Shown piece after piece: positions 7,141 to 22,870 of a stretch of 57,888 nt of DNA (positions are counted from its first letter, which is position 1; every line of letters begins with the position of its first letter). The stretch covers positions 1 through 57,888 of the forward strand of contig CAZZIO010000015.1 in assembly GCA_964654465.1 (NCBI GenBank), given 5' to 3'. Both the position numbers and the translations under genes were made by a program. The notes under the pieces are model-generated. The model was not told the DNA's origin and made no database searches. It was given only the letters and a program-made list of their open reading frames with translations. Source of the DNA: an uncultured Dictyoglomota bacterium. Lineage in GTDB: Bacteria; Dictyoglomota; Dictyoglomia; Dictyoglomales; Dictyoglomaceae.

Positions 7141-7155
7141 AAAAATCACTACCTC

Positions 7156-8343
7156 CTATATCTCAAATCTTATTTTTAAAGGACCACTGTTATAAGTATC
7201 CTCTTCAACTATCACTTTTAGGATAACCTTTTTACCCCTCTCTTTAATTTTATAAGCAGTATCATAAAATTCATCAAAAGATATTTCACCAACAGTATTT
7301 GATAATGGATCAGGAAGTATTCCTTTTTGTTGAGCTATTTTATTAACCTCTGATAGAACCTCTAATAGTCTTGATTCAATCTTATCTAAACTTTCACTAC
7401 CATCAATAACTTTTAGTAATATTACCTCTCCTGTCTTATATACTAATTTATAAGGAAAAATTTGGAAATATACAATAACTGGTTCACCCTCAAATATGTT
7501 TGCTAGAGAATGTACCCTTACCAATTTTTCCTCTGTAGTTTTCATTTCCTCTAAAAGTTTTTTCCATTCCGCTTCTGGCACCCATACGTATCCTTTTTCT
7601 TCATTTCCTGCTCCTCTTTCTCTTGCTATACTTTCAATTAAAGAAAGAAGTGCTTTTGCCTCTTTTTGTATATCATCACCTGTTTTACCTCTAATAATAT
7701 AATTAAGTATCAATTCTCCTCTTTTAAATATAATTCCTTCTGTACGTAGACTGGCTATAGTAGAATTCAAAAACTGTAATTCATCAAGTAAATATTTTTT
7801 ATCTTTCTCCAAAGATTCTTTTTCCTTAGATAATGTGGCTATTTTTTTAGAGACTTCGTATATAGACCTTTGAAGCTTCTCATTTTCTTTCTTTAATCTC
7901 TCTTTTTCCATAGATAATTTATTAAGTTCTTTAAGTAATTTTTCTCTTTCCATTTCCAAAATATGAATTTTATTTTTATATTCCTCTAAATCTTTTAGAG
8001 CCTTATCTCTACCTTTCTTAACTTCTTCATACCTCTTTAAAATCTCTGTATATTCTTTTTCCTTTGACTTAATCGAATTTTCTAAAGAATATATTTGTTT
8101 CTTTAATTTTTCCATTCCAAATAAAGCTACTCGAACATTTTCCGAAATAACAGAAAGCACAACAAGAGAGAAAATCATAATTAAAATGCCAGTCAAAATA
8201 CTGATTATACGAGAAGTATATTTAGGCCTAAGGCCAAAGAGAGAAAGTTTCTTTTTCCCTGCTTTTCTACCTACATAATCTCCTGCATATGCAATCAAAC
8301 CACTTGCAAGAATCAATATAATTATTAAAAAAAATCCAGACAT
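7156..8343 (-). CDS. DUF3084 domain protein (two N-terminal TM helices plus long coiled coil)
   Basis: GLIAYAGDYVGRKAGKKKLSLFGLRPKYTS motif and heptad-rich central region. Confidence 0.82.
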   Translation of the reverse strand: MSGFFLIIILILASGLIAYAGDYVGRKAGKKKLSLFGLRPKYTSRIISILTGILIMIFSLVVLSVISENVRVALFGMEKLKKQIYSLENSIKSKEKEYTEILKRYEEVKKGRDKALKDLEEYKNKIHILEMEREKLLKELNKLSMEKERLKKENEKLQRSIYEVSKKIATLSKEKESLEKDKKYLLDELQFLNSTIASLRTEGIIFKRGELILNYIIRGKTGDDIQKEAKALLSLIESIARERGAGNEEKGYVWVPEAEWKKLLEEMKTTEEKLVRVHSLANIFEGEPVIVYFQIFPYKLVYKTGEVILLKVIDGSESLDKIESRLLEVLSEVNKIAQQKGILPDPLSNTVGEISFDEFYDTAYKIKERGKKVILKVIVEEDTYNSGPLKIRFEI

Positions 8344-9062
8344 TAAAGATTAAACCTCTCTCCTAAGAAAAATCTTTTTGCCATATCACTATTAACTATT
8401 TCTTCTGGAGTACCGGAGATAAGAACCTCTCCAGAAAATATTATATATGCATAATCTGTTATAGCTAATGTATCTCTAACATTATGATCAGTAATTAATA
8501 TACCCAACCCCTTTTCTCTTAAATAGGAAATAGTTTCTTGTAAATTTTGAACAGTAATAGGATCAACCCCTGCAAAAGGTTCATCTAAAAGTATATACTT
8601 AGGAGAAAGGGCTAAAACCCTAGCTATTTCAACCCTTCTTCTCTCTCCTCCAGAGAGTGTATACCCTAAATTTTTCCTAACTTTCTGTAATCGAAATTCT
8701 TCTATTAATTCTTCTAATCTCTCTTTTTGCTCTTTTGGGGTTAACTTTGTTAATTCTAATACCAATTTTATATTGTCTTCTACTGTAAGCTTTCTAAATA
8801 TTGTAGGATCTTGGGCAAGATAACCAATACCTTTTCTTGCTCTTTGGGGCATAGATAAATGTGTAATATCCTCGCCATCAAGTAAAATCTTACCCTGATT
8901 AGCAGTTACTTCCCCCATAATAGTATAAAATGTAGTAGTTTTTCCTGCCCCATTTGGTCCTAAAAGCCCAACTACATTCCCAGGGGTTACACGTATAGAG
9001 ACATTTTTAACTACACATCTTTTTCCGTAGTATTTATATATACCTATGGTCTCAAGTGCCAT
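8343..9062 (-). CDS. lptB: LPS export ABC transporter ATP-binding protein
   Basis: VGLLGPNGAGKTTTFY, LSGGERRRVEIAR, LLDEPFAGVDP, LITDHNVRDTL. Confidence 0.95.
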   Translation of the reverse strand: MALETIGIYKYYGKRCVVKNVSIRVTPGNVVGLLGPNGAGKTTTFYTIMGEVTANQGKILLDGEDITHLSMPQRARKGIGYLAQDPTIFRKLTVEDNIKLVLELTKLTPKEQKERLEELIEEFRLQKVRKNLGYTLSGGERRRVEIARVLALSPKYILLDEPFAGVDPITVQNLQETISYLREKGLGILITDHNVRDTLAITDYAYIIFSGEVLISGTPEEIVNSDMAKRFFLGERFNL

Positions 9063-9068
9063 AATTTA

Positions 9069-9097
9069 ATGTTAAGAAAATTTTAACAATATGTCAA
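9069..9097 (-). promoter_or_regulatory. Internal sigma70 promoter for lptB, likely leaderless, overlapped by a palindrome
   Basis: Minus strand TTGACA (9097-9092), 17 nt, TAACAT (9074-9069), 6 nt, ATG 9062; no SD; TGTTAA-N7-TTAACA at 9070-9088. Confidence 0.6.
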
Positions 9098-9098
9098 T

Positions 9099-9731
9099 TT
9101 ATCTCAAATTTTTTAAAATTCCAAATATGTTTTTATATCCTTTTCTTTGAACAATACTCAAAGTCATAAAGTATTCCTTAAGGGCAGAGAAATATCTATT
9201 TTCTCTTAAATATAAGGCACATAAAAGAGCGTGAAAAACCTCATTATCTTTATTTAATTTTAATCCTTTATCTATTAATTCTTTTGTCTTATTTAAATTA
9301 TCTTTTAAATAGTACAAATATGCAAGAAAAGCTATTACCCAATCATCGTTAGGTTTTAAATCATATAACCTTTCAAAATAAAAGATAGATTTATCATAAT
9401 CTTCTAAGAAATAATACAAAAATGCTAATTTATATAGATTGAATATACTACTATCTTCTTCCTTTATATCTTTTTTTAGGTTTTTAAGAAAGTTGGGATC
9501 AGTAGCAATAAGCAAATTATATGTATTATAAAGATTCTCTAAATCTCCTAAAGCCCCATATACTACCATAAGATTAAAAAGAACTTTAGAATTTTGAGGC
9601 TCTTTTTTTAATTGCTGTTCAAATTGAGTTTTTAAATATTTTAGATCATCAGAAGATAATGATAGAATAATAAAAAAGATAAGAAAGATTATAGATAAGT
9701 AAAAATTTTTAAGTATCTTTCTTAATATCAA
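9099..9731 (-). CDS. Exported or membrane-anchored tetratricopeptide repeat protein
   Basis: N-terminal hydrophobic stretch; TPR-like repeats (LYKLAFLYYFLEDYDKSIFYFERLYDLKPND). Confidence 0.7.
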   Translation of the reverse strand: MILRKILKNFYLSIIFLIFFIILSLSSDDLKYLKTQFEQQLKKEPQNSKVLFNLMVVYGALGDLENLYNTYNLLIATDPNFLKNLKKDIKEEDSSIFNLYKLAFLYYFLEDYDKSIFYFERLYDLKPNDDWVIAFLAYLYYLKDNLNKTKELIDKGLKLNKDNEVFHALLCALYLRENRYFSALKEYFMTLSIVQRKGYKNIFGILKNLR

Positions 9732-10662
9732 AAATTCTCAGCTCCTTTAAAATTTCAGTAGCAAGGGCTAAAGCTAATTTTCCATCCTCAAGGGTAACTT
9801 CAGGATCCGACCCCTCAAGAATACAATTCACAAAATGTTCAAGCTCTAATCTCAAAGGTTCCTCTTTCTCTAAAACTGGAGTCTCTATAGATGTTTCAAC
9901 TTGTTTTCTATTCCCATGAATTATAGATATGCTTTGTTCCATATAATCTATGCTTATTAAATCCCCATTCTTCTCATAAATATCTAATCTTCTAATCTTT
10001 TTAGGAGTTACCCTACTGGCAATCAGATTTACAAGAAGATTTCCCTCAAAAACAAGTTCTACATTTGCAAAATCTTCATAAGAAGTATAAAAAGAATAAC
10101 CATATCCTTTTATGTCTAATATTTTTCTACCCTTACCTAATACATAAAAAAGTATATCCAAATCATGAATCATAAGATCCATTACAACCCCCACATCAGT
10201 TATCCTACCGTCAAAAGGACCAGATCTTTTTATCTCCATGTAAAAAGGATCATTTATATATCTTTTTAATTCTTGAACAGCAGGATTAAATCTTTCTATA
10301 TGACCTACCTGTAAAATAAGATTTTTCCCACTGGCAATCTCTAAAAGAGTTTCCGCTTCTTTTAAAGTTTGAGTTACAGGTTTCTCTATAAAAGTATGAA
10401 TACCTCTAAGCAAAAAGTCTTTTGCTATCTGAAAATGAGTATTAGTAGGAGTAACAATACTAACAGCATCAACCCTATCAAGTAAATCTCTATAATCAGA
10501 AGTTACAAAAGGTATATTATAAATAGAAGCAATCTCTTTTGCTCTTTGTAAATTTAAATCTGCAATTCCTACAATTTCTACTTTAGGAATCTCGCTGAAA
10601 ATTCTTACATGATGTTGCCCTAAATATCCTACTCCAACAACTCCTATCTTTACCTTATTCAT
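9709..10662 (-). CDS. Gfo/Idh/MocA oxidoreductase, probable UDP-GlcNAc 3-dehydrogenase (GnnA-like)
   Basis: GVGYLGQHH, EKP, QVGHIERFNPA, DLMIHDLD; position inside the lpx cluster supports GnnA. Confidence 0.75.
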   Translation of the reverse strand: MNKVKIGVVGVGYLGQHHVRIFSEIPKVEIVGIADLNLQRAKEIASIYNIPFVTSDYRDLLDRVDAVSIVTPTNTHFQIAKDFLLRGIHTFIEKPVTQTLKEAETLLEIASGKNLILQVGHIERFNPAVQELKRYINDPFYMEIKRSGPFDGRITDVGVVMDLMIHDLDILFYVLGKGRKILDIKGYGYSFYTSYEDFANVELVFEGNLLVNLIASRVTPKKIRRLDIYEKNGDLISIDYMEQSISIIHGNRKQVETSIETPVLEKEEPLRLELEHFVNCILEGSDPEVTLEDGKLALALATEILKELRIFDIKKDT

Positions 10663-12394
10663 CTCCTATATTACTCTCCTCAAGTTGCCATTTTATTATT
10701 CTTGCATAAATTCCACCCTTCTTCAAGAGATCTTCATGAGTACCCTCTTCTACTATTTCTCCATTTTCTAATACAATTATTCTATCAGCTTTTCTTATAG
10801 TAGATAAGCGATGAGCCACAATAAAAGCAGTTTTTCCCTCCATAAGATCTTTTAAAGCTTCCTGTACATAGGCTTCTGATTCTGAATCTAATGCTGAGGT
10901 AGCTTCATCAAGAATTATTAATCTTGGCTTTAAAAGAACAACTCTTGCAATAGCAATTCTTTGTGCCTGTCCTCCCGAAATACCTACCCCACCTTCTCCA
11001 ATTACAGTATCGTATCCATTTGGTAGATTCATAATAAAATCATGAGCCCTTGCAATTTTAGCAGCCTCTATAATTTCATCTAAAGTTACATTTGGGTTTC
11101 CATAACTTATATTATCCTTTACTGTACCATAAAAAATAATAGTCTCTTGTGGAACGAAACCTATTTGAGATCTTAAAGATTTTAAACTCACTTCTTTTAT
11201 ATTGTACCCATCAATTCTTACTTCTCCTTGAGTGGGATCTATAAACCTTGGAATAATATTTACCAGAGAACTTTTTCCTGCACCACTACTTCCAACAATA
11301 GCAATTTTTTCTCCAGGATTAACTTTAAGATTTATATTCTTTAAAACCCAACTCTTTCCGTCATATGTAAAATATACATTTTTAAATTCTACAAAACCTT
11401 TTATTGGAGGTAGAACTATTGGATTTTTAACCTCTTCTACTTCTTTACCTTTATCCAAAATCTCAAAAATTCTTTCTAAAGCTGCATAGGTTTGCCTAAG
11501 TCCTGAAAACACTCTAAGAATAGTTTGAGTAGGATCCAAAGCCATACCCACATAAGTAAGAAAGGCTACAAATGATCCCATTGTTATCTCTCCTCTTGCT
11601 ATCTTTCTTGTACCTAACCAAAGGATAAAAACAAGTGCTAAAGCACTTAAAAAGCTAGCAAGAGGAATTTGAAATGCTGTAAGTCTTGCAATTTTCAAAT
11701 TTCTAAAAAAGTTTTTCTCGTTTTCTTTCTTAAATCTTTCAATTTCTTTTTCTTCTTGAGAAAAGCCTCTTACTATTCTTGCTCCTTTTATACTCTCCTG
11801 TATAAGTTTTGTTAAATCTGCTACCTTTTTTTGTACAGACATGGACCATTTTTGTATTTCCCTACCTATACCAGATATAGAAAAAACAAAAAGAGGAATA
11901 ACAATAAGAGTTGCAAGAGCAAGTTGCCAATCTGTGATGAATATTATAACAAGTACTCCTGATAAAAGGACTATAGCATAAAAAAGATCTGCTATGCCTG
12001 ATAAAAAAGAAGTTTGTATCAATTGAGTATCTTGAAGAGTACGAGCTATAAGATCACTACTTCCCCATCTATTTAAATAATCTAAAGAGAGATATTGAAT
12101 CTTCTCGAATAATTTTTCTCTTAAATCTGCTACTAATCTATGACCAATAAAAGAAAAAATATAAATCTGACCATACAAAAAAATACTTCTTGTAAAAAGA
12201 AGAAGAATAATTATAAAGGCTAATCTATTTAAAACATTTAAATCTCTAATATGAGAAAGCTGATCCAAAAGTTCTCCTAAGAATTTTGGTGCATATAATT
12301 GAGCACCATTACCAACTATAATACAGAAAAAACCTATTATAAAATAAATTGCATATGGTTTTAAAAATTCAAATAGCCTTTTCAAGTACTTCAT
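10655..12394 (-). CDS. msbA: Lipid A flippase-type ABC exporter
   Basis: Fused TMD and NBD (GSSGAGKS, ISGGQAQR, ILDEATSALD, AHRLSTI) in the lpx cluster. Confidence 0.85.
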   Translation of the reverse strand: MKYLKRLFEFLKPYAIYFIIGFFCIIVGNGAQLYAPKFLGELLDQLSHIRDLNVLNRLAFIIILLLFTRSIFLYGQIYIFSFIGHRLVADLREKLFEKIQYLSLDYLNRWGSSDLIARTLQDTQLIQTSFLSGIADLFYAIVLLSGVLVIIFITDWQLALATLIVIPLFVFSISGIGREIQKWSMSVQKKVADLTKLIQESIKGARIVRGFSQEEKEIERFKKENEKNFFRNLKIARLTAFQIPLASFLSALALVFILWLGTRKIARGEITMGSFVAFLTYVGMALDPTQTILRVFSGLRQTYAALERIFEILDKGKEVEEVKNPIVLPPIKGFVEFKNVYFTYDGKSWVLKNINLKVNPGEKIAIVGSSGAGKSSLVNIIPRFIDPTQGEVRIDGYNIKEVSLKSLRSQIGFVPQETIIFYGTVKDNISYGNPNVTLDEIIEAAKIARAHDFIMNLPNGYDTVIGEGGVGISGGQAQRIAIARVVLLKPRLIILDEATSALDSESEAYVQEALKDLMEGKTAFIVAHRLSTIRKADRIIVLENGEIVEEGTHEDLLKKGGIYARIIKWQLEESNIGDE

Positions 12395-13460
12395 GATAAA
12401 AATCCTTCCAGATCAACTCGGACGATAGATAATTCTTATTAAACTTTTCTTTTAACTCATTATGTATATTTAAGATTATCTCCCTTTCAACAATTAATCC
12501 TCTTAAAAATTCTAACACATCCTTAAACAAAAATTTACCTACTACTTCAGGTAGTATTCCAGGATATAGCTTATTGGGCAAGGCTAAATATGGATTTCTA
12601 TTTAAGTAGGCTTTTATAATAAAATCTCGTATTCTTCCCTTAAACAAATTACCAATCCCTTCAAGAGGAAGATATTCTGGTCTATGAAGAGGCAATATTA
12701 CTAACATAGGAATCTTCATATATGCAAGTTGCAAAGTATTGGTACCAGGAAGTGTAATAGCAAGAAAATAACCATTCACATCTCTCATATCCTTTAGATC
12801 TCTAAACTCCATAGGTAAATCTTTCCAAAGAGGTTGCAGTTTCTCTAATATTTTTCCCCTTTCTGATGGATTTAAAAAGGGAGAGAAAAATAAGGTGAAG
12901 TTAAGATCTGGAAAATCTTTTAAAATTTCTCTTGCTAACATGAAATAAAATGGCAAATAAAATCTCAACCCATAGGTCCTACTCCCCGGAAATAAAGCAA
13001 TTTTATTATTGTTAGAAAACCCATTATTGGGAAGAAAATCAAATCTTAAATCTCCAACTACTACTGCCTTTTTATATTTCAATACTTCAGATGCATAGAT
13101 CCTATTATAAAATCTTTCCCAATAAAAATCTTTCTCCAAGTATGCTAAAGATTTACTTTTCCACCTTTTGGCAAGAGCCAAATTAAAAAATAAATCTCCT
13201 CCTATATGGAAGATTATTGTGTTACTTTCTTTAACTTTAAAAAGCTTCCAATATTCATTTGGTAAGATTATATCTTCAAAAAATTCCCATGTTCTTACAA
13301 CTCTTTCTTCTTCTCCTGATGCAAATTGACAAGGATTTAATATTAAATAATATGACAAATTTTTACTCCAAAAAGGCTCATACTCCCTTATCCACTGTAC
13401 CAATGGATAGAGCCAGCCTGCTATTTCTCCAGGCCCATTAGCTATGAAATAAATTTTCAT
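12369..13460 (-). CDS. LpxB-related GT-B glycosyltransferase (NGPGE type)
   Basis: N-terminal ANGPGE motif; LpxB-like IALFPGSR, TLPGTNTLQLA, LALPN. Confidence 0.7.
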   Translation of the reverse strand: MKIYFIANGPGEIAGWLYPLVQWIREYEPFWSKNLSYYLILNPCQFASGEEERVVRTWEFFEDIILPNEYWKLFKVKESNTIIFHIGGDLFFNLALAKRWKSKSLAYLEKDFYWERFYNRIYASEVLKYKKAVVVGDLRFDFLPNNGFSNNNKIALFPGSRTYGLRFYLPFYFMLAREILKDFPDLNFTLFFSPFLNPSERGKILEKLQPLWKDLPMEFRDLKDMRDVNGYFLAITLPGTNTLQLAYMKIPMLVILPLHRPEYLPLEGIGNLFKGRIRDFIIKAYLNRNPYLALPNKLYPGILPEVVGKFLFKDVLEFLRGLIVEREIILNIHNELKEKFNKNYLSSELIWKDFYHEVLEKAI

Positions 13461-14545
13461 AAAAGATTTAATATAAAATCAGAAATTTTATCTAAAACCC
13501 CAGGTTTTCCAATTATTTCAGAGATTCTATCAAGATCTTTTAACATTTTTTCTCTTCTATCGCTATCTTTCAAAAAATCATCTATATCCTTAACAACCTT
13601 GTTTATATCTATATACTGCACATACTCAGGAAATATACGTTTTTCTAAAATAATATTGGGCAAAGCAATATAAGGATAATGAACAAGTCTTTTAGCAATA
13701 AAATAAGTCAATGGAGAGATCTTATAAAATACAAAAACAGGTGTCTTGAGAATGGCAGCCTCTAAAGTTACTGTACCAGAGGCTACAAGGCTTATGACAG
13801 ATGCCCTTAAGATCTTTTGGCTTTCATTTCCTGACACAACTTTCACCAAATTCTCCTTCCCTTTAATGATAGAATATAATAAATTAGAAAAATTTTGACT
13901 TGCTAAAGGAATAACAAATTTATATCCTGGCAATTTCTCAGCTATCTCTAAAAAAATAGGAGTAAGTTTTTTAATTTCCTGTACTCTACTTCCTGGGAAA
14001 AGTCCTATAAGATCATTTTTTTTGTCTATATTTGAATAAACTGAAAGATAATCTATAAGAGGATGTCCAAAAAAAACCACATTATCTCCAAATGATTTAT
14101 ATAAAGAATACTCTTGAGGAAAAGTAGCAATTATCCAATCCAAATTTGAAAGAACTTCTTTAGCTTCTTCTTTCTTTCCCCATAGCCAATATTGTGGAGC
14201 AAAATAATATACAGTTATTATACCTAAACTTTTCGCATATTTTGCTAATGGGAGGTTAAAACCTTGAGCATCAATAAATATAGCAAGATCAGGTCTTGCC
14301 TCTCTTAATAAATTTTTGGCTTCTTGCTGTATTTTTAATAACTTTGGAATATAAGGTAAAGGCTCAACAAAACCAACAGTACTATATCTTGTTAGATCCC
14401 ATCTTACATCTAAGCCTTCTTCCTTCATTCTTTCTCCGCCAAGACCAAAAAAATATATATTTTTTTGTTTTTGTTTTAGCGCATTTATAAGCTTTGATCC
14501 ATGTAAATCAGCAGAAACTTCTAATGCTGAAAAGAATATTTTCAT
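13457..14545 (-). CDS. lpxB: Lipid-A-disaccharide synthase
   Basis: EVSADLHG, IDAQGFN, YYFAPQYWLW, GHPL, LFPGSRVQE, ASGTVTLE, IALPNII. Confidence 0.92.
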   Translation of the reverse strand: MKIFFSALEVSADLHGSKLINALKQKQKNIYFFGLGGERMKEEGLDVRWDLTRYSTVGFVEPLPYIPKLLKIQQEAKNLLREARPDLAIFIDAQGFNLPLAKYAKSLGIITVYYFAPQYWLWGKKEEAKEVLSNLDWIIATFPQEYSLYKSFGDNVVFFGHPLIDYLSVYSNIDKKNDLIGLFPGSRVQEIKKLTPIFLEIAEKLPGYKFVIPLASQNFSNLLYSIIKGKENLVKVVSGNESQKILRASVISLVASGTVTLEAAILKTPVFVFYKISPLTYFIAKRLVHYPYIALPNIILEKRIFPEYVQYIDINKVVKDIDDFLKDSDRREKMLKDLDRISEIIGKPGVLDKISDFILNLL

Positions 14546-15336
14546 TCTTCATTCCTCCAAGATGCATCAGCAATTCCTCTTTTCGAGCCTTTAACAAAAT
14601 CAACCAACATTTTAGCCTCTTCATATTCTATCTTAGATATTGCCTCTAATCTTTTCTCAAAAGATAAACCTTTATCATATAATATATGAAAGAGTTTTCT
14701 AATTATTCTAATCCTATCACTCGAAAAACCATTTCTTCTTAGACCTACCACATTAATACCATATATTAGAGCCGGATTACCATCACATAAAGAAAAGGGA
14801 GGAATATCTTTAACCAACTTAGATAATGCTCCAACCATTGCATAACTACCTATCCTTACGAACTGATGAATCCCTACAAGACCACTTATAAATGCCTTGT
14901 CTCCAATTTCCACATATCCAGCAAGTTGTGTGGCATTGGCTATTATAACATCTCTTCCAATTTTAACATTGTGAGCCACATGAACATATGCCATTAAATA
15001 ACAATTATCACCTATGATTGTAGCATTACCATTACCAGATGCCCTATGAAATACACAATATTCTCTTATTGTTACATTATTTCCTATTATAAGAAAACTT
15101 TCTTCTCCTCTGAAACTCAAATCTTGAGGAATATCACCTAAAACACTTCCTGTATGTATATGACAACCACTACCTATAATGGTTCCTCTTTTAATATGAA
15201 CATTGTTTTCAATTTTTGTATAATCTCCAATTCTTACCCCATCCTCAATTACAGTAAAAGGACCAATCTCTACATTTATACCTATTTCAGCCTTACCACT
15301 GATTATAGCAGTAGGATGTATTGATACATCCTTCAT
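14542..15336 (-). CDS. lpxA: Acyl-ACP--UDP-N-acetylglucosamine acyltransferase
   Basis: IHPTAII, hexapeptide repeats, PQDL, MAYVHVAHN, IHQFVRIG, GINVVGLRR. Confidence 0.95.
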   Translation of the reverse strand: MKDVSIHPTAIISGKAEIGINVEIGPFTVIEDGVRIGDYTKIENNVHIKRGTIIGSGCHIHTGSVLGDIPQDLSFRGEESFLIIGNNVTIREYCVFHRASGNGNATIIGDNCYLMAYVHVAHNVKIGRDVIIANATQLAGYVEIGDKAFISGLVGIHQFVRIGSYAMVGALSKLVKDIPPFSLCDGNPALIYGINVVGLRRNGFSSDRIRIIRKLFHILYDKGLSFEKRLEAISKIEYEEAKMLVDFVKGSKRGIADASWRNEE

Positions 15337-15773
15337 TCTTTTCCTCCTAATGCAATAGTAATTTCTCCGTCTGCCACAATATTATCATCTACTTTACAAA
15401 TTGCATCAAACTTATATATATTCCTTACTGTTTGCTTTAGTTTTACTTCTAAAACTATTTGATCACCCGGAATTACTGGTTTTCTAAATTTAACGTTATT
15501 CACCCCTGCTAAATACGCTATATATTCTTTATCACTTTTATCTTTTCCATAGCTTAGAAATAAAAATATACCTGCAGACTGTGCCATAGCTTCAATTATT
15601 AATACTCCCGGCATAATAGGTCTTTCAGGAAAATGTCCTACAAAAAAATAGTCATTATACGTAACATTTTTTATTGCTTTTAACCATTCCCCTTCTTTAA
15701 AATCTAATACTTTATCAACAAGAAGAAAAGGGAAACGATGAGGAAGAATTTTAGTAATATCAATATTATTCAC
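15333..15773 (-). CDS. fabZ: 3-hydroxyacyl-ACP dehydratase
   Basis: LPHRFPFLLVD, GHFPERPIMPGVLIIEAMAQ. Confidence 0.96.
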   Translation of the reverse strand: MNNIDITKILPHRFPFLLVDKVLDFKEGEWLKAIKNVTYNDYFFVGHFPERPIMPGVLIIEAMAQSAGIFLFLSYGKDKSDKEYIAYLAGVNNVKFRKPVIPGDQIVLEVKLKQTVRNIYKFDAICKVDDNIVADGEITIALGGKE

Positions 15774-15777
15774 ATCA

Positions 15778-16581
15778 TCACCCCCTAAGTAGATATGACA
15801 TAGCTTTCATATGTAGCGAGTGTCCTGATCCAATAGATATAATTTTTAATTTTAATCTTTTACCTGAAAGGGATATATCACCTATTAAATCAAGAATTTT
15901 ATGCCTTACTGGCTCATCTTTGAAGCGAGGTTCATTAACATATCTACCTTCTCCCACAAGAAGTGCATTGTTAAGATCAGCACCACTTATGAGTCCTTTT
16001 TTAACAAGCTCCTCTACCTCATAATAAAACCCGAAAGTTCTTGCTGGAGCAATTTCAGTTTTATAATCTTTAAGATCTTTTAAATAAAATGTTTGCCATC
16101 TTAAAAAGGAATTAGGAAAAGAGATAGCACAAAGTACTTGAAATCTGCTTGAGGGAAAAAAGAGAATTTCAGCATTTTTAACCCTAAAAGAATATGGTTT
16201 CTCAATCGTCAATTCATCTATTAAATCATCCTGATCTTTTACTAAATCCTCAAGAATTTCTACCCAATAAAAAGCACTGCCATCTAAAATTGGCACTTCG
16301 TCTCCATCAACTTCCACATATAAGTTAGAAATTCCAAGGTAATATAATGAAGACAAAAAATGTTCAACAGTAGAAATCTTTTCGCCATCTTTTTCTAAAA
16401 CAACTCTACGTGAAGTTTCTACTACAAACTTATAATTGGCTGGAATTTTTACTTTATTCTTAATAAACAAAACACCTGTATTTTCTGGGGCAGAATGTAA
16501 ATACATTTTAGTATAACAACCAGTATGTAGGCCTTTACCTTCTACCTTGACAGATTCTTTTATTGTTCTTTGTCTAACCAA
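15778..16581 (-). CDS. lpxC: UDP-3-O-acyl-N-acetylglucosamine deacetylase
   Basis: GKGLHTG, TVEHFLS, EVPILDGSA, IAPARTFG, VRHKILDLIGD, GHSLH. Confidence 0.95.
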   Translation of the reverse strand: MVRQRTIKESVKVEGKGLHTGCYTKMYLHSAPENTGVLFIKNKVKIPANYKFVVETSRRVVLEKDGEKISTVEHFLSSLYYLGISNLYVEVDGDEVPILDGSAFYWVEILEDLVKDQDDLIDELTIEKPYSFRVKNAEILFFPSSRFQVLCAISFPNSFLRWQTFYLKDLKDYKTEIAPARTFGFYYEVEELVKKGLISGADLNNALLVGEGRYVNEPRFKDEPVRHKILDLIGDISLSGKRLKLKIISIGSGHSLHMKAMSYLLRG

Positions 16582-17566
16582 GTTTATCCCTCAACTTCTT
16601 TATTTCTTCCCAAATCTCAGGAAGTCTTCTCATAATAGCTTGTACTCTCATCTCTTCCCTATGAGGTCTGGCGGGAAATCCAGAAACTATCATGTTATCA
16701 GGTATGTCTTTAATCACACCACTCTTAGCAAGGATGGTTACGTTATTGCCTACTTTAACATGATCAGAAACACCGCTTTGACCTGCCATGATTACATTAT
16801 TTCCTAATTTACTACTTCCAGCTATACCACTCTGACTTACTATAACGCAATTCTCTCCTATTCTTACATTATGTCCTATGATTATCAATGATCCTATTTT
16901 AGTACCTTTACCTATGCGTGTTTCTCCCAAAGTGGCTCTTTCAATAACCGTGTTTCCTCCTATTTCTACTTCATCCTCTATAACCACCTTACCAATATGA
17001 GGGATTTTGTAATGCTCTTCTCCATTCCATACATATCCAAAACCATCTATTCCAATACTACATCCTGAATGAATTATAACTCTATCTCCAATATAGCAAT
17101 GGTCATAAATAGTTACTCTTGGATATATGATACAATTCTCACCTATTTCCACATTATTTCCTATTACTACTCCTGAAAATATCTTTGATCCTTTGCCAAT
17201 CTTTACATTATCTCCTATAACAGTATATGGTGCTATTCCCACATCCTCTCCTAATTGAATCCCTTTGCCCATAATAACTGTAGGATGAATATCTTTAGGA
17301 TATACCCGCCAATCAAAATACTTTAATAATTCTGCCATTGCAAGTTTAGGATTCTCAACCCTTATATGTGGCTTAGAAGAAGACCCACCATATGGAATCA
17401 CCATTGCTTTTGCCCCTGTTTTTTCAGCTACTTTTATATCATCCAAATCAAATACAAATATAAGATCATTATCTCCTGCTTTGTCCCATTCAGAGATCTT
17501 TTCTATATATACATCTTCCCCAACTAACTCTCCATTAATTATCTTTGCTATTTCACTAAGATGCAT
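16574..17566 (-). CDS. lpxD: UDP-3-O-acyl-glucosamine N-acyltransferase
   Basis: N-terminal uridine-binding domain, hexapeptide repeats, IGIDGFGY, IGHNV, GFPARP. Confidence 0.95.
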   Translation of the reverse strand: MHLSEIAKIINGELVGEDVYIEKISEWDKAGDNDLIFVFDLDDIKVAEKTGAKAMVIPYGGSSSKPHIRVENPKLAMAELLKYFDWRVYPKDIHPTVIMGKGIQLGEDVGIAPYTVIGDNVKIGKGSKIFSGVVIGNNVEIGENCIIYPRVTIYDHCYIGDRVIIHSGCSIGIDGFGYVWNGEEHYKIPHIGKVVIEDEVEIGGNTVIERATLGETRIGKGTKIGSLIIIGHNVRIGENCVIVSQSGIAGSSKLGNNVIMAGQSGVSDHVKVGNNVTILAKSGVIKDIPDNMIVSGFPARPHREEMRVQAIMRRLPEIWEEIKKLRDKLG

Positions 17567-17579
17567 CTTTATTCACCCT

Positions 17580-18008
17580 TTATTTATTCAAATTTTTTAA
17601 AACCTCATCAGTAATATCAATCCCACCCCATATTCTTATCTTCTTTTCGATAACCACAGAAAGCTTCTTGATCTTTGCTATATTTTCAACTTCTTTTAAA
17701 ATTTTATTTTTTATATCTTGTCTTGCTTTCTCTACATATTCTCCTAATTTTTTCTCTTCTTTAGCCCTTAATTCATTAATCTCCTTATCAGTTTTTCCAC
17801 TTTTCTTGGCATCAACTACCAATTTCTCAATTTCAGACTGTCTTTTCTGTATTACAGTTTGAACACTCTTAGTATATCTGAAATCAAGAAATACCTTTGA
17901 ATAATCTATATATCCTATATTAATACTCTGTTGAGAAGAAATAATAGAGAAAGATGAAACAAATATAATGTATACAGATAAAATTATCTTCAATAGCCTT
18001 TTTTTCAT
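17580..18008 (-). CDS. skp: OmpH/Skp family periplasmic chaperone
   Basis: Signal peptide, IGYID, helical tentacle, GGIDITDEVLK. Confidence 0.85.
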   Translation of the reverse strand: MKKRLLKIILSVYIIFVSSFSIISSQQSINIGYIDYSKVFLDFRYTKSVQTVIQKRQSEIEKLVVDAKKSGKTDKEINELRAKEEKKLGEYVEKARQDIKNKILKEVENIAKIKKLSVVIEKKIRIWGGIDITDEVLKNLNK

Positions 18009-18010
18009 GT

Positions 18011-18481
18011 CTATTTACCAGAAGATAGAATATTTATAACTTTATCTGTAATATCTACTCCGCCCCAAATTACAATCTCCTGACCTTGTACATTCTTTGT
18101 AAGTACTGCTATGTATCCCTCTTTTTTAGCAAGATCAGAGAATATTTTATCAAGAGTCTTTTTTAAGCTATCTAACACTTTTTCCACTGCTTGCTTATAA
18201 GGTTGAAGTTCCGCATCATATTGGGCCGATAGTTTCTTTATTTCATCCTGAGATTTTCCAGCCTTCTGAGCTTCATTAAGCTTATTAAGCCTATCTTGAT
18301 ATTCTTGTTGATATTTATTATAGGCATTCATAAAAGGAGGATAACTTCTTAAAAGTTTATCTTCATCAATATATGCTATTTTCAGAGAAGTCTGAGTCTG
18401 TGCTCCAACAATTTTAATACCAACAAAGATGAATGAGATTGCAATTAGTAAAAATACTATGAACAGACCATATTTTTTCAT
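18011..18481 (-). CDS. skp: OmpH/Skp family periplasmic chaperone (second copy)
   Basis: Signal peptide, KIAYID, GGVDITDKVI. Confidence 0.85.
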   Translation of the reverse strand: MKKYGLFIVFLLIAISFIFVGIKIVGAQTQTSLKIAYIDEDKLLRSYPPFMNAYNKYQQEYQDRLNKLNEAQKAGKSQDEIKKLSAQYDAELQPYKQAVEKVLDSLKKTLDKIFSDLAKKEGYIAVLTKNVQGQEIVIWGGVDITDKVINILSSGK

Positions 18482-18493
18482 TTTCCTTACCTC

Positions 18494-19963
18494 CTAAAAT
18501 TCTAATTTTGATTTGATATAAAAATTTCTTAAAGATACAAGATCACTCTCTAATCCAAAGGCAGAGAATAAGGATTTTTGAGTAACTGAAAACTCCACAC
18601 CAAAAAATGGATTAATTCTAATATCACTTGCAGACACTAAATCTCTTGGATTAAAACAGCTATCACCTCCCACAGATAGAGTTAAATATATCCATTTGTT
18701 TAAGGGAAATGCATAAGTAATCTTTAAATACAAAGATCCATCCTCTGGTGAATCTCCAAAAGGATATCTTATATCCCCCATTAAACCTAATATACGTTCA
18801 TTAAGACCCTCTCCGTATCTTATAAAATACTTACCTGATAATGAGGCTAAAGAATAATTATAATTAGAGCCTCCACCATGAAAATCTATGCCAAAATTAA
18901 AATAGCTTCCAGATTTATAAACACCATTCTCTTCTAAAGTTGCATCTTGAGTTATATCAAAACTCAACACTTTATCATCAAGATTCGGATTATTTTTAAA
19001 ACCAATTTCACCTACTATATTATTACTACTGGAAAGAGTTTTATTAATACTCAATCCCCAATAATTATCTCCAAAATAAACTTTTAAAAACTCCCGTTGC
19101 CAAGAAATAAGGTAGTCAAAAGATCCTCGCATATTGTTAGAAATGTTTAACTCTAAATTGCCATAATTACTCAAATAGTAGCTAAAACGTAAATTTACTC
19201 TCTCATTTTTTTCATAAATCAAAGAAACTATTCTTGGTGATAGATATTCAACATTAAGATATAAAATTGTATAAGCTCCTTCAAAAGCCCATTCTGGTAT
19301 TATTTTTATCCTTATATTCTTTTTCAAAAGTTTCTGATTAAGTTCATCTATTTTCTTTAGATCAAGAGGATCTCCTATTGAAAGATTCAAATTCTCTTCA
19401 ATAACCTTCTTTTCCCATTGATTACCGCTTATTATTTCAATACTACCTATAATAGGAGCCTCTTTCCAAATAAATGAAAGAATTCCATCTTTAAAAATAT
19501 ATTGAGGAGAAATTTCTAAAACAAAACCCTTCTTTCTATAAAGATCCTCAATCTTTTTGCAATCCTCTTTAACTTTATCCTCAATAAAAAATTTGCCTTT
19601 GCCACTATAAATAACTTTCTGAATAGCATTAATTGTTATAAGCTTTATATCTGGAAATATTATGTCAGCAACAACAGGAAATTCTTCCACCTTTATGATC
19701 AGTTCATAACCACCATCTAATTTTTTAAGATCATAAGAGACAGATTTAAAATAACCACTTTCCTTTAACTTATTTAGTTGACCTTCTATATACTTTCCAT
19801 TATAAGTATTTAAAACTTTAATGTTTAATATATTCTGAACCGTATCGTAAGAAACATTTTTCAAACCTATTATAGATATTCCCTGAATAAAATAATTTTC
19901 ATCAGCAAAGGTAAGGTTTAAAGTAATTAAAAGAAATAAAGAAAATATTATTATCCTTTTCAA
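18494..19963 (-). CDS. Omp85-like outer membrane protein with ~3 POTRA domains and a short barrel (likely TTG start 19963)
   Basis: SD GGAGG before TTG; signal peptide; POTRA motifs (GLKNVS...SGYFKSV); amphipathic C-terminal strands ending KSKLEF. Confidence 0.7.
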   Translation of the reverse strand: MKRIIIFSLFLLITLNLTFADENYFIQGISIIGLKNVSYDTVQNILNIKVLNTYNGKYIEGQLNKLKESGYFKSVSYDLKKLDGGYELIIKVEEFPVVADIIFPDIKLITINAIQKVIYSGKGKFFIEDKVKEDCKKIEDLYRKKGFVLEISPQYIFKDGILSFIWKEAPIIGSIEIISGNQWEKKVIEENLNLSIGDPLDLKKIDELNQKLLKKNIRIKIIPEWAFEGAYTILYLNVEYLSPRIVSLIYEKNERVNLRFSYYLSNYGNLELNISNNMRGSFDYLISWQREFLKVYFGDNYWGLSINKTLSSSNNIVGEIGFKNNPNLDDKVLSFDITQDATLEENGVYKSGSYFNFGIDFHGGGSNYNYSLASLSGKYFIRYGEGLNERILGLMGDIRYPFGDSPEDGSLYLKITYAFPLNKWIYLTLSVGGDSCFNPRDLVSASDIRINPFFGVEFSVTQKSLFSAFGLESDLVSLRNFYIKSKLEF

Positions 19964-19980
19964 AGAGATCCCTCCATTCA

Positions 19981-22851: not shown

Positions 22852-22870
22852 AGCTAATTCACCTTCCTTC

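Follow-up and report, generated by a model that had tools for sequence, protein, structure and literature searches.

The lipid A genes of Dictyoglomus have been described in part. Opiyo et al. reported a four-enzyme lipid A pathway in Cyanobacteria and Dictyoglomi and linked it to cyanobacterial LPS that has no Kdo, heptose or phosphate (Opiyo et al., 2010; PMC3087551). In Dictyoglomus turgidum, the cluster Dtur_0814-0824 was reported to include an LpxB-related gene (Brumm et al., 2016; PMC5167688). [quoted passage not shown] TIGR03492, the lipid-A-disaccharide synthase-related protein, is a hypothetical equivalog in NCBIfam to which no function is assigned. In this study, we analysed a window of 57,888 nucleotides, meaning the whole stretch of DNA, from an uncultured Dictyoglomota bacterium. 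It carries the conserved operon for the outer membrane and lipid A of a thermophile from the Dictyoglomus group, with a minimal "four-enzyme" pathway. The absence of the later steps and the LpxB-related gene were already published (Brumm et al., 2016; Opiyo et al., 2010). What goes beyond the parts of those papers considered here is the clade of the LpxB-like protein (LpxB2), its co-occurrence with TIGR03492 and LpxC, and a GnnA-like dehydrogenase with candidates for GnnB. What may be new is the membership of the extra LpxB-like gene in an enzyme family that is widespread and unstudied and that could supply the missing steps.

Organization of the operon

Gene calls were based on the listing of ORFs and on Pfam and NCBIfam scans (Table 1), and they agreed with the original prediction of an overlapping lpxD-lpxC-fabZ-lpxA-lpxB-[LpxB-like]-msbA-[Gfo/Idh/MocA]-TPR run. 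Neighbours in this run overlapped by 4-26 nt or were separated by 4-nt gaps, so that an extra gene within it was excluded. The run was flanked by TamB/BamA/Skp genes on one side and by lptB on the other. The start of LpxB2 overlapped the stop of lpxB by 4 nt, and LpxB2 is translationally coupled to lpxB; the DUF3084 gene overlapped the stop of lptB by 1 nt. In three related loci (L019, L020 and L014), the TPR gene and the DUF3084 gene after lptB were kept, and the dehydrogenase gene had the same place in the cluster. The close relatives were Dictyoglomaceae and Dictyoglomus, in the phylum Dictyoglomota, and the diderm Firmicutes to which the cluster had been compared earlier were not the right reference.

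Table 1. Features of the operon, with positions in the window
Gene or product	Position	Strand	Evidence
lpxD, UDP-3-O-acylglucosamine N-acyltransferase	16574-17566	-	TIGR01853, 340.9 bits vs cut-off 242.5
lpxC, UDP-3-O-acyl-GlcNAc deacetylase	15778-16581	-	TIGR00325, 215.6 bits vs cut-off 187.25; PF03331, 259.8 bits
fabZ, 3-hydroxyacyl-ACP dehydratase	15333-15773	-	TIGR01750, 179.2 bits vs cut-off 155.15
lpxA, UDP-GlcNAc O-acyltransferase	14542-15336	-	TIGR01852, 312.8 bits vs cut-off 231.05
lpxB, canonical lipid A disaccharide synthase (GT19)	13457-14545	-	TIGR00215, 242.9 bits vs cut-off 190.25
LpxB2 (LpxB-like), GT-B glycosyltransferase, third GT19-like clade	12369-13460	-	PF02684, 24.5 bits, residues 150-255; TIGR00215, 18.3 bits
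MsbA-like ABC exporter, half-transporter	10655-12394	-	ABC_membrane and ABC_tran; TIGR02204, 499.9, and TIGR02203, 487.7, both below cut-off
Gfo/Idh/MocA dehydrogenase, GnnA-like	9709-10662	-	NF040723, 266.5 bits vs cut-off 450
TPR protein, membrane-anchored	9099-9731	-	TPR_19 and TPR_8; hydrophobic N-terminal segment
lptB, LPS-export ATPase	8343-9062	-	TIGR04406, 345.2 bits vs cut-off 240
DUF3084 membrane coiled-coil protein	7156-8343	-	PF11283, 103.2 bits; two N-terminal hydrophobic segments, then coiled coil
Skp/OmpH gene	17580-18008	-	Pfam/NCBIfam
Skp/OmpH gene, second copy	18011-18481	-	Pfam/NCBIfam
POTRA protein	18494-19981	-	Pfam/NCBIfam
BamA	19981-22851	-	Pfam/NCBIfam
TamB-like gene	22871-26107	-	Pfam/NCBIfam

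The canonical LpxB was aligned to E. coli LpxB (5w8s, E 3.8e-37), with its E9, S11, D92, P184, S186, R187, T258, E262 and N297 at the positions of E. coli E15, S17, D98, P198, S200, R201, T277, E281 and N316, respectively. The MsbA-like exporter is presumed to be the flippase of the lipid A glycolipid. The machinery for LPS export is present, consisting of lptB in the operon together with LptF/G, which was found in all 11 Dictyoglomota genomes, mostly in two copies.

Genes missing from the genome and the phylum

The assembly is 1.91 Mb in size and 99.97% complete. It was searched with models for LpxH, LpxI, LpxK, WaaA, KdsA and KdsB. As predicted, the cluster (9099-17566) contained no LpxH, LpxI, LpxK, WaaA or DegT-type aminotransferase. 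No match in the whole genome was obtained with LpxK (PF02606), WaaA (PF04413), LpxI (PF06230), LpxH (TIGR01854) or KdsB (TIGR00466). The sole match of KdsA (TIGR01362; 133.6 bits, cut-off 314) was a DAHP synthase (NF006421, 500.7 bits), whose gene sits between aroB and the prephenate dehydrogenase gene. Since KdsA and KdsB are themselves absent, the Kdo step is truly missing. Ten metallophosphoesterase (Metallophos) ORFs were present in the genome, all outside the cluster. Among the 11 Dictyoglomota genomes, nine of which are at least 90% complete, neither LpxK nor WaaA exceeded the cut-off in any (0/11 each). Because the later-step genes were absent from both genome and phylum, a Kdo-free and 4'-phosphate-free lipid A in Dictyoglomus is a sensible inference from gene content, as the original prediction had suggested, and it is not new (Opiyo et al., 2010). 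Our literature search found no Dictyoglomus lipid A chemistry.

The LpxB2 family

The AF2 model of LpxB2 (pLDDT 91) had a GT-B fold, and its top PDB fold match was E. coli LpxB (E 1.3e-10). The same enzyme was matched at E 2.5e-23 by the family profile (alignment A2), and hhalign of LpxB2 alignment A1 against the LpxB alignment gave 99.7% probability. LpxB2 retained E12, P158-G159-S160-R161, T240, N296 and E305, and the counterparts of the retained residues in LpxB are E15, the PGSR loop (including R201, which is essential), T277 and N316. The PGSR-loop Arg and other donor-site residues were conserved in at least 90% of 119 family members. According to hhalign, H85 occupied the position of the LpxB catalytic base D98, and a conserved D89 lay four residues past it, within a 3-residue insertion; the ribose-binding Glu (LpxB E281) was Gln244 in Dictyoglomota. 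From its fold and its retained residues, LpxB2 looks to be an active glycosyltransferase that uses UDP-sugars.

The family comprised 529 cluster representatives at E <= 1e-3, and relatives were spread over Cyanobacteria, Armatimonadota, Gemmatimonadota, Proteobacteria and other phyla. Weak matches to the LpxB model were given by 107 of the 119 members (best E 3e-23) and to the TIGR03492 model by 82 (best 3e-15). A tree built from 63 proteins placed LpxB, LpxB2 and TIGR03492 each on its own side of a branch (support 100/99, 100/99 and 100/100, respectively). As judged from the sequences, LpxB2 is a third, ancient GT19-like clade, which is neither LpxB nor TIGR03492 and no recent copy of LpxB.

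Genomic company of LpxB2

Co-occurrence was analysed in 15 genomes from about ten phyla, which were picked for carrying LpxB2 and came with no completeness figures. LpxC and TIGR03492 were found in all 15, the latter over cut-off in 12. LpxK was present in four and WaaA in three, leaving 11 and 12 genomes without them, while LpxI was present in five, four of which had neither LpxK nor WaaA. By these counts, the presence of LpxB2 and TIGR03492 follows the disappearance of post-LpxB steps more closely than that of LpxH/LpxI, and the genomic associations of LpxB2 point to the steps after LpxB. The counts of LpxK and WaaA also indicated that the two proteins are not confined to Kdo-free lineages, and modules with LpxB2 and TIGR03492 were found in Proteobacteria and Gemmatimonadota in which LpxK and WaaA are present. 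In Deinococcus radiodurans, TIGR03492 was over cut-off and LpxC gave no match, indicating that TIGR03492 is not everywhere tied to lipid A. Four of the 15 genomes (G014, G017, G019 and G024) had no TIGR00215 match over cut-off; three of them are metagenome bins of unknown completeness.

Frequent neighbours of LpxB2 were an MsbA-like exporter, GT2 genes and an O-antigen-ligase-like gene. Among 80 related loci, an MsbA-like gene lay directly 3' of LpxB2 in 10 and TIGR03492 was inside the LpxB2 locus in 14. LpxB2 modules also carried GT2 genes, Wzy_C/WaaL-like (O-antigen-ligase-like) ligases (L024, L031), and LptF/G with LptB (L030, L048). In the Dictyoglomota genus g3, TIGR03492 was encoded within the lpx operon itself (L014:13922-15004, 251.8 bits). 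The source genome had it outside the operon (G000:C62:14115-15335), with GT2, GT4 and a Wzy_C ligase about 9 kb away on the same contig. In the cyanobacterial loci LpxB2 was isolated (50/50), with no MsbA-like or TIGR03492 neighbour, and the gene was distant from lpxB. Both Dictyoglomota and cyanobacteria retained a canonical LpxB with the full set of active-site residues. In locus L072, the order was lpxD-lpxC-gfo-fabZ-lpxA-LpxB2-msbA, with LpxB2 in the slot expected for lpxB and no canonical LpxB in the genome.

The GnnA-like dehydrogenase

The GnnA/GnnB route leads to GlcN3N-based lipid A in Acidithiobacillus, Leptospira, Campylobacter and others. The best PDB match of the operon's dehydrogenase was 7bvj (E 1.6e-48; labelled "Oxidoreductase, NAD-binding"), which we take to be GnnA of A. 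ferrooxidans. The protein looks like GnnA and is a candidate UDP-GlcNAc 3-dehydrogenase; its gene was also found inside the lpx cluster of L072. Two unassigned DegT-family aminotransferase genes on contigs C32 and C70, unlinked to the cluster, could serve as GnnB. The dehydrogenase would act on the backbone of the sugar and would not stand in for a missing step.

Proposed pathway and alternatives

The reading that we prefer, to which we give roughly an even chance, is that LpxB2 and TIGR03492 add sugars to the lipid A disaccharide, and that this glycosylation takes the place of the Kdo and 4'-phosphate chemistry. It is built on the observed gene content, the absences from genome and phylum, the LpxB2 clade, the UDP-binding residues, the co-occurrence and the neighbourhoods. 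From these we infer which substrates are used, how the steps are ordered and what the product is chemically. UDP-2,3-diacylglucosamine would be made by LpxA, LpxC and LpxD, possibly after the GnnA-like dehydrogenase, together with an aminotransferase whose gene is unlinked, has turned the sugar into its 3-amino form (GlcN3N), in which case every primary acyl chain would be amide-linked. The disaccharide would be formed by LpxB. With LpxK, WaaA and Kdo synthesis all lacking, it would bear neither 4'-phosphate nor Kdo. LpxB2 would put the first non-Kdo sugar or sugars on it from UDP-sugar donors at the cytoplasmic face, probably with TIGR03492, its constant genomic partner, as co-worker. The product would then be flipped by the adjoining MsbA-like exporter, possibly extended by the GT2, GT4 and WaaL-like ligase of contig C62, and exported by LptB and LptF/G. 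The His at the D98 position and the Gln for E281 count against this reading, and so do the occurrence of LpxB2 and TIGR03492 in genomes with LpxK or WaaA, the four genomes with no TIGR00215 match over cut-off, the gene order of L072, the TIGR03492 of D. radiodurans, the isolated LpxB2 of the cyanobacterial loci, the choice of the 15 genomes for their LpxB2 and the need for a supply of lipid X without LpxH, LpxI or LpxG.

Another reading, which we consider unlikely but worth weighing, is that the missing LpxH/LpxI step is bypassed by LpxB2, either by itself or together with TIGR03492. It would act as an alternative lipid A disaccharide synthase, with UDP-2,3-diacylglucosamine as donor and with water, a second UDP-diacylglucosamine or a sugar as acceptor instead of lipid X; the reducing end would then have no phosphate. 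LpxB is both the nearest solved structure and the nearest profile to LpxB2, whose PGSR loop and "ALPN...PE" donor-domain motifs are LpxB-like, and LpxH and LpxI were found neither in the source genome nor in the two cyanobacterial genomes checked. The four genomes with no TIGR00215 match over cut-off and the gene order of L072 fit this reading as well, yet the completeness of three of the four is not known. Furthermore, LpxB2 and TIGR03492 are present in five of the 15 genomes even though these keep LpxI and canonical LpxB, and the canonical LpxB of Dictyoglomota and cyanobacteria has an intact active site.

It is less probable, and in our view rather doubtful, that the gaps are only apparent, with non-homologous enzymes supplying lipid X and perhaps more, and with LpxB2 making an unrelated ABC-exported glycolipid or polysaccharide primer. 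One of the ten Metallophos ORFs could be LpxH- or LpxG-like, LpxG being outside the model set, and the Deinococcus case and the modules in LpxK- and WaaA-bearing Proteobacteria and Gemmatimonadota are in line with such a role. However, LpxB2 occurred together with LpxC in every genome of the sample, it is translationally coupled to lpxB, its modules contain LptB, LptF/G and a WaaL-like ligase, and the Kdo step at least is genuinely missing. The coupling to lpxB, the swapped dimer of E. coli LpxB (Bohl et al., 2018), the Gln at the ribose-binding position and the unaligned catalytic Asp would also suit a non-catalytic LpxB2 that regulates or anchors LpxB in a mixed dimer. This is highly improbable, given that the PGSR Arg and donor-site residues are so widely kept, that cyanobacterial LpxB2 is encoded far from lpxB and that the family occurs in genomes without canonical LpxB. 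The original prediction was partly supported: of the extra genes said to replace the missing steps, the LpxB-like gene is a credible candidate on comparative genomic grounds, whereas the GnnA-like gene would serve to modify the backbone.

Comparison with known systems

In the preferred reading, LpxB2 resembles WaaA (GT30) as a cytoplasmic-face GT-B enzyme that would add the first core sugar before the MsbA flip. However, it is no member of that family by sequence, and the genome has neither PF04413 nor a supply of CMP-Kdo. LpxB2 has in common with E. coli LpxB the GT-B fold, the PGSR loop and its essential Arg, the GT-motif Thr, the LPN Asn and the N-terminal GE motif. It differs in its identity of 21% (hhalign), its TIGR00215 score (18.3 bits vs 190.25) and its separate clade, in the His at the D98 position with a GGD insertion nearby, in the E281 to Gln change of Dictyoglomota and in the S17 to Ala change of the source genome. 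TIGR03492 is likewise a GT-B, LpxB-related protein with a PGSR motif, and in genus g3 it shares the operon, but LpxB2 gave no match to its model at E <= 0.001 and has its own clade. As in the GnnA/GnnB route, a Gfo/Idh/MocA dehydrogenase is encoded amid lpx genes, but no aminotransferase adjoins it in this operon, and its score with the archaeal UDP-GlcNAc 3-dehydrogenase model fell short of the cut-off (266.5 vs 450).

[quoted passage not shown] The LpxB-like paralogue, TIGR03492, the MsbA-like and GnnA-like genes and the completion of the pathway are not treated in the parts of that paper compared here (Opiyo et al., 2010). In the part of Brumm et al. considered, the order of Dtur_0814-0818 is that of the upstream TamB/BamA/POTRA/Skp genes of our operon. 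However, their cluster stops at the LpxB-related gene, whereas the operon here runs on through the MsbA-like, GnnA-like, TPR, lptB and DUF3084 genes, and it was called unique to Dictyoglomus, whereas the LpxB-related gene here has relatives in multiple phyla (Brumm et al., 2016).

Organization of the lpx operon

The gene order and positions predicted for 9099..17566 were confirmed by ORF analysis with Pfam and NCBIfam scans, and the cluster is indeed too tightly packed to hold further genes: between lpxD and the TPR gene, successive genes either share 4-26 nt or are separated by 4 nt. Every gene across 7156-26107 is on the minus strand (see the table). The genes lpxD, lpxC, fabZ, lpxA and lpxB are contiguous and all five scored above their NCBIfam cut-offs, as in a four-enzyme lipid A pathway. 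They are followed by the LpxB-like gene, here called LpxB2, and by an ABC exporter which has the correct domain architecture for MsbA but scored below the equivalog cut-offs of TIGR02203 (487.7 vs 602 bits) and TIGR02204 (499.9 vs 780.4). A scan of 6900-26500 for promoters and terminators gave 100 and 7 hits vs 100.1 and 6.7 in shuffled sequence and was therefore uninformative.

Several other features of the region were recorded. The DUF3084 gene overlaps lptB at its stop by a single nucleotide and keeps its place after lptB in the other Dictyoglomota loci (L019, L020 and L014); its product has two N-terminal hydrophobic segments followed by a long coiled coil and may be a candidate unrecognised component of the Lpt machinery. 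Upstream, two Omp85-related genes stand in tandem, BamA (956 aa, five POTRA matches) and a 495-aa protein which matches the N-terminal POTRA part of BamA only (TIGR03303, 75 bits). Two ORFs, the 479-aa one of them directly downstream of the TamB-like gene, had no Pfam or NCBIfam match at E <= 1e-5. GC skew was strongly negative throughout the 58 kb (cumulative skew -7.9) and the minus strand carries nearly all genes, which fits one replichore with co-oriented genes.

Features of the lpx region and related genes (positions are those of the window unless a contig or locus is named)
Feature	Coordinates	Strand	Evidence or size
ORF without family match	47014-47787		257 aa
ORF without family match	26275-27714		479 aa
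TamB-like	22871-26107	minus	Pfam/NCBIfam scans
BamA	19981-22851	minus	Pfam/NCBIfam scans
POTRA protein	18494-19981	minus	Pfam/NCBIfam scans
Skp/OmpH genes (two)	between POTRA protein and lpxD	minus	Pfam/NCBIfam scans
lpxD	16574-17566	minus	above curated NCBIfam cut-off
lpxC	15778-16581	minus	above curated NCBIfam cut-off
fabZ	15333-15773	minus	above curated NCBIfam cut-off
lpxA	14542-15336	minus	above curated NCBIfam cut-off
lpxB	13457-14545	minus	above curated NCBIfam cut-off
LpxB2	12369-13460	minus	weak LpxB-model matches
MsbA-like ABC exporter	10655-12394	minus	ABC_membrane + ABC_tran
Gfo/Idh/MocA dehydrogenase	9709-10662	minus	Pfam/NCBIfam scans
TPR protein	9099-9731	minus	Pfam/NCBIfam scans
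lptB	8343-9062	minus	above curated NCBIfam cut-off
DUF3084 protein	7156-8343	minus	Pfam/NCBIfam scans
TIGR03492 gene, source genome (outside the window)	G000:C62:14115-15335		406 aa, 429.9 bits
TIGR03492 gene, genus g3	L014:13922-15004		251.8 bits
Pfam-less protein	L030:7141-7962		about 273 aa
Pfam-less protein	L048:7171-7989		about 273 aa
Pfam-less protein	L056:7050-7880		about 273 aa
Pfam-less protein	L032:6817-7929		370 aa

Absence of the later lipid A steps

Of the steps noted as missing from the cluster, LpxH, LpxI, LpxK and WaaA were also absent from the whole source genome (1.91 Mb, 72 contigs, 99.97% complete), as were KdsA and KdsB. Six-frame family searches gave zero matches for LpxK, WaaA, LpxI (PF06230), LpxH (TIGR01854) and KdsB, so that the genome has neither the LpxK 4'-kinase nor the WaaA Kdo transferase by which the canonical Raetz pathway reaches Kdo2-lipid A. 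The sole KdsA match (TIGR01362, 133.6 bits, cut-off 314) was a DAHP synthase (NF006421, 500.7 bits) inside an aro operon, where aroB and the gene for a prephenate dehydrogenase flank it. The UDP-2,3-diacylglucosamine hydrolase of the Raetz pathway was searched for with the LpxH and LpxI models, neither of which matched; because the genome holds ten generic metallophosphoesterase (Metallophos) ORFs, an unrecognised pyrophosphatase is possible.

The setting was not that of the diderm Firmicutes to which the original prediction referred, but of Dictyoglomota: the sources of the nearest LpxB2 relatives (50-90% identity) label them as Dictyoglomaceae or Dictyoglomus. Among 11 Dictyoglomota species genomes from three genera (9 of them at least 90% complete), LpxK was above the cut-off in none, with one sub-threshold match of 19.6 bits, and WaaA was found in none. 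LptF/G was present in all 11, mostly in two copies. The LptD model (PF04453) had zero matches in these genomes, a null that is uninformative since it detected just 2 of 14 known control genomes; it also missed the Synechococcus and Bacteroides controls, and the result may reflect a sensitivity problem and not true absence.

LpxB2 is an LpxB paralogue with a partly conserved active site

LpxB2 is one of only two genes in the genome that match PF02684, the other being the lpxB of the window. Its matches to the LpxB models were weak (PF02684, 24.5 bits; TIGR00215, 18.3 bits vs a cut-off of 190.25), and it is outside LpxB proper as judged by sequence. The AlphaFold model (pLDDT 91) has a GT-B fold, with E. 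coli LpxB structures (5w8n, 5w8s, 5w8x) as the top Foldseek PDB matches (E 1.3e-10 to 5e-10). The single sequence retrieved nothing relevant from the PDB; the family profile retrieved LpxB at E 2.5e-23, and hhalign against 15 canonical LpxB sequences gave 99.7% probability over 339 columns with 21% identity.

The active site was compared by mapping the window LpxB and the residue list of Bohl et al. (2018; PMC5785501) on E. coli LpxB, in which R201 of the PGSR loop is essential, T277 binds the beta-phosphate, D98 is the catalytic base and E281 binds the ribose. LpxB2 retains E12 (E15 in E. coli), P158-G159-S160-R161 (the PGSR loop with R201), T240 (T277) and N296 (N316), but has A14 for S17 and Q244 for the ribose-binding E281. 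Position 244 is Q in LpxB2 and in the consensus of an alignment of mostly Dictyoglomota rows, and E in the consensus of the wider family. H85 was aligned by hhalign to the catalytic D98, with a conserved G87-G88-D89 just after it, in a 3-residue insertion. Among 119 family members E51, G87, S160, G239 and G268 were invariant, and N8, P10, G11, E12, G88, G159, R161, P238, T240, P295, N296 and E305 were at least 90% conserved. LpxB2 thus looks like an active UDP-sugar glycosyltransferase, a prediction from sequence and structural model.

The family is old. A phmmer search of 1.84 billion cluster representatives gave 529 matches at E <= 1e-3, 338 at E <= 1e-10 and 7 at E <= 1e-30. Weak matches to the lpxB model (107 of the 119 scanned members, best E 3e-23) and to TIGR03492, the model for lipid-A-disaccharide synthase-related proteins (82 of 119, best E 3e-15), were frequent. 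With a 24-sequence alignment as query we took the best 80 of 565 loci with confirmed relatives, by record title 2 from Dictyoglomota, 50 cyanobacterial and 28 from other groups, which comprised Sericytochromatia, Armatimonadota, Gemmatimonadota, Eremiobacteria/Baltobacteraceae, a Meiothermus bin, Fervidifonticultor, Sysuimicrobiota, Rhodobacterales, Rhizobiales and bins of Deltaproteobacteria, Verrucomicrobiia and Spirochaetota.

For the tree, 63 proteins (15 LpxB, 24 LpxB2 and 24 TIGR03492 rows, duplicates L117 and L118 dropped) were grouped by the single one of three Dictyoglomus queries that each ORF matched at E <= 1e-8. IQ-TREE separated each group by one branch (UFBoot/SH-aLRT 100/99 for LpxB, 100/99 for LpxB2 and 100/100 for TIGR03492). 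LpxB2 is therefore not the cyanobacterial TIGR03492 protein: the two form separate clades, LpxB2 had zero TIGR03492 match at E <= 0.001, and the genuine TIGR03492 gene of the genome sits on another contig, C62. In a quick tree the LpxB2 and TIGR03492 subtrees shared the pairings of genomes G011/G020, G012/G023 and G019/G018, and two Gemmatimonadota, as well as the Rhodobacterales, were also paired alike in both.

The TIGR03492 gene

A TIGR03492 gene scored above the cut-off in all 11 Dictyoglomota genomes. That of the source genome adjoins genes for a LacI regulator and a GH106-like protein, and GT2, GT4 and Wzy_C ligase genes lie about 9 kb away; this GT2 has 33% identity to the GT2 following the MsbA-like gene in L030, and the ligase 30% identity to that of L024. 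In another Dictyoglomota genus, g3, TIGR03492 is inside the lpx operon, with the dehydrogenase on one side and the TPR gene on the other (L014; also L020). The out-of-cluster form of the source genus groups with cyanobacterial TIGR03492 in the tree, and the g3 form is a long separate branch. A fold search with its model (pLDDT 95) gave generic GT-B matches only (UDP-GlcNAc 2-epimerases, MurG and GT1 enzymes).

Co-occurrence and gene neighbourhoods of the pair

Fifteen genomes (G011-G025) were picked for the presence of LpxB2 and reached through their loci; their completeness is not given. All had LpxC, and all had TIGR03492 at E <= 1e-10 (12 of 15 above the cut-off). Canonical LpxB was above the cut-off in 9, with none in G014, G017, G019 and G024 and sub-threshold or fragmentary matches in G022 and G025. 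LpxK occurred in 4 (G013, G018, G019 and, weakly, G017), WaaA in 3 (G013, G018 and, weakly, G017) and LpxI in 5 (G011, G012, G018, G020 and G023); LpxH was never above the cut-off, with weak matches in G013 and G019. Because G011, G012, G020 and G023 have LpxI and LpxB together with the LpxB2 and TIGR03492 pair and lack LpxK and WaaA, the pair tracks the loss of post-LpxB steps more than that of LpxH/LpxI. However, the Deinococcus radiodurans control had TIGR03492 above the cut-off and zero LpxC match, which speaks against tying TIGR03492 strictly to lipid A.

Gene neighbourhoods were read by tblastn of the window proteins against the best 80 of 565 loci, dropping MsbA and LptB matches below 120 bits, and by a Pfam scan of 74 ORFs. 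An MsbA-like gene directly followed LpxB2 in at least 10 of the 80 loci (Dictyoglomota 2/2, other groups 8/28, cyanobacterial 0/50), and TIGR03492 was within at least 14 (1/2, 13/28 and 0/50, respectively); as some loci are short, these counts are lower bounds. In Armatimonadota and Fervidifonticultor the module consists of LpxB2, an MsbA-like gene, a GT2, a Wzy_C/WaaL-like ligase, one or two further GT2 and TIGR03492. The proteobacterial module has LptB and/or LptF/G, DUF2334, TIGR03492, a GT2, a Pfam-less protein of about 273 aa and LpxB2, with DUF2334 upstream of TIGR03492 in L030, L048 and L056; in L030 and L056 LpxB2 is followed by an MsbA-like gene with a second GT2, a pair that was not found after LpxB2 in L048. 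A shorter module in Gemmatimonadota (L032) comprises TIGR03492, a longer relative of the Pfam-less protein, LpxB2, an MsbA-like gene and a GT2. In the proteobacterial modules and that of Gemmatimonadota alike, the Pfam-less protein always immediately precedes LpxB2, and its copies matched one another by phmmer (E 1e-50 to 1e-101); neither it nor DUF2334 had a tblastn match in the source genome at E <= 1e-3.

In the isolate Anianabacter salinae (L048/G017) there was zero TIGR00215 match at E <= 0.001 genome-wide; LpxC, weak LpxK and WaaA matches, two TIGR03492 genes and LpxB2 were present, and a paralogue may have taken over LpxB function there.

The GnnA-like dehydrogenase

The dehydrogenase reached 266.5 bits against NF040723, the archaeal UDP-GlcNAc 3-dehydrogenase (cut-off 450), and its best PDB match was 7bvj/7bvk (E 1.6e-48), the former presumably A. 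ferrooxidans GnnA. Its position is kept in the operons L019, L020 and L014, it recurs inside the lpx cluster of the Meiothermus bin (L072), and of five other LpxB2 genomes that were examined, three have homologues with 37-42% identity. There was no aminotransferase (GnnB partner) beside it in the cluster. The three strong DegT-family matches of the genome are all outside the cluster: RfbH, which we rejected as GnnB as it sits in a CDP-hexose cluster, and two unassigned ones, on contigs C32 and C70. The lipid A of Aquifex has a GlcN3N backbone, and such a backbone is plausible in the source lineage.

Possible roles of LpxB2 and TIGR03492

Our preferred reading, to which we give about an even chance, is that the operon encodes the known minimal pathway and that LpxB2, with TIGR03492, decorates the disaccharide in place of Kdo/4'-phosphate chemistry before it is flipped. 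Both would act as cytoplasmic glycosyltransferases on the lipid A disaccharide, and the MsbA-like exporter would then flip the decorated product. The tracking of post-LpxB losses by the pair is consistent with this reading. The main rival, that LpxB2 is an alternative disaccharide synthase with no need for lipid X, appears rather unlikely here, with canonical lpxB intact next to LpxB2 and LpxI plus LpxB retained in five genomes that have the pair. It draws support from genomes without canonical LpxB, among them that of the Meiothermus bin L072 (NZ_JANXCG010000038.1), which has two TIGR03492 genes and in which MreB, lpxD, lpxC, the Gfo/Idh/MocA gene, fabZ, lpxA, LpxB2 and the MsbA-like gene stand together; this is either a Deinococcota lpx cluster using LpxB2 instead of LpxB, or a misbinned contig.

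That unrecognised analogues supply the missing steps is less probable again; the generic metallophosphoesterases leave room for one at the LpxH step. LpxB2 as a non-catalytic partner of LpxB would fit their adjacency and the change at E281, and we consider it very improbable given the retained PGSR loop and T240.

Going beyond decoration, LpxB2 and TIGR03492 may tentatively be regarded as the long-missing enzymes with which lipid A-core synthesis is finished in the absence of LpxK, WaaA and Kdo, although we think this somewhat less probable than not. Their role could be to attach the first core sugars or anomeric sugars to the disaccharide or, in some lineages, to take the place of LpxH and LpxB entirely. 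Both GT19-like families are found in Cyanobacteria, Sericytochromatia, Dictyoglomota, Armatimonadota and several candidate phyla. If this proved true, there would be a second, ancient route to the LPS anchor and a Kdo-independent LPS core pathway in hugely abundant bacteria such as Prochlorococcus and Synechococcus, with a bearing on the nature of the ancestral outer membrane.

Comparison with known lipid A systems

The central idea of the original prediction, that this lineage may build a chemically different lipid A-like glycolipid, was sound, though already in print (Opiyo et al. 2010, PMC3087551; Brumm et al. 2016, PMC5167688); for Dictyoglomus, a lipid A module of non-canonical make-up that lacks genes has already been published. 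In the literature we found no paper on Dictyoglomus LPS chemistry, no function for the LpxB paralogue family (the sole related item was the gene name lpxB2 in Leptospira) and, as far as we found, no enzyme named as finishing cyanobacterial or Dictyoglomus lipid A. The part worth following up is the conserved LpxB2 and TIGR03492 pair, two specific candidate genes to which the operon and the comparison across about ten phyla have led.

According to Opiyo et al. (2010; PMC3087551), it has been known since at least 2010 that cyanobacteria and Dictyoglomus retain just the first four lipid A enzymes, and cyanobacterial LPS is described there as free of Kdo, heptose and phosphate. A review describes cyanobacterial lipid A as phosphate-free and bearing galacturonic acid (PMC4390846). 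In our quick tree Dictyoglomota LpxB was sister to Sericytochromatia and cyanobacterial LpxB (SH-aLRT 97-99) and stood separate from that of Armatimonadota, Gemmatimonadota and Proteobacteria. The four-enzyme pathways of Dictyoglomota and cyanobacteria may share a common origin, or may have been transferred between the lineages.
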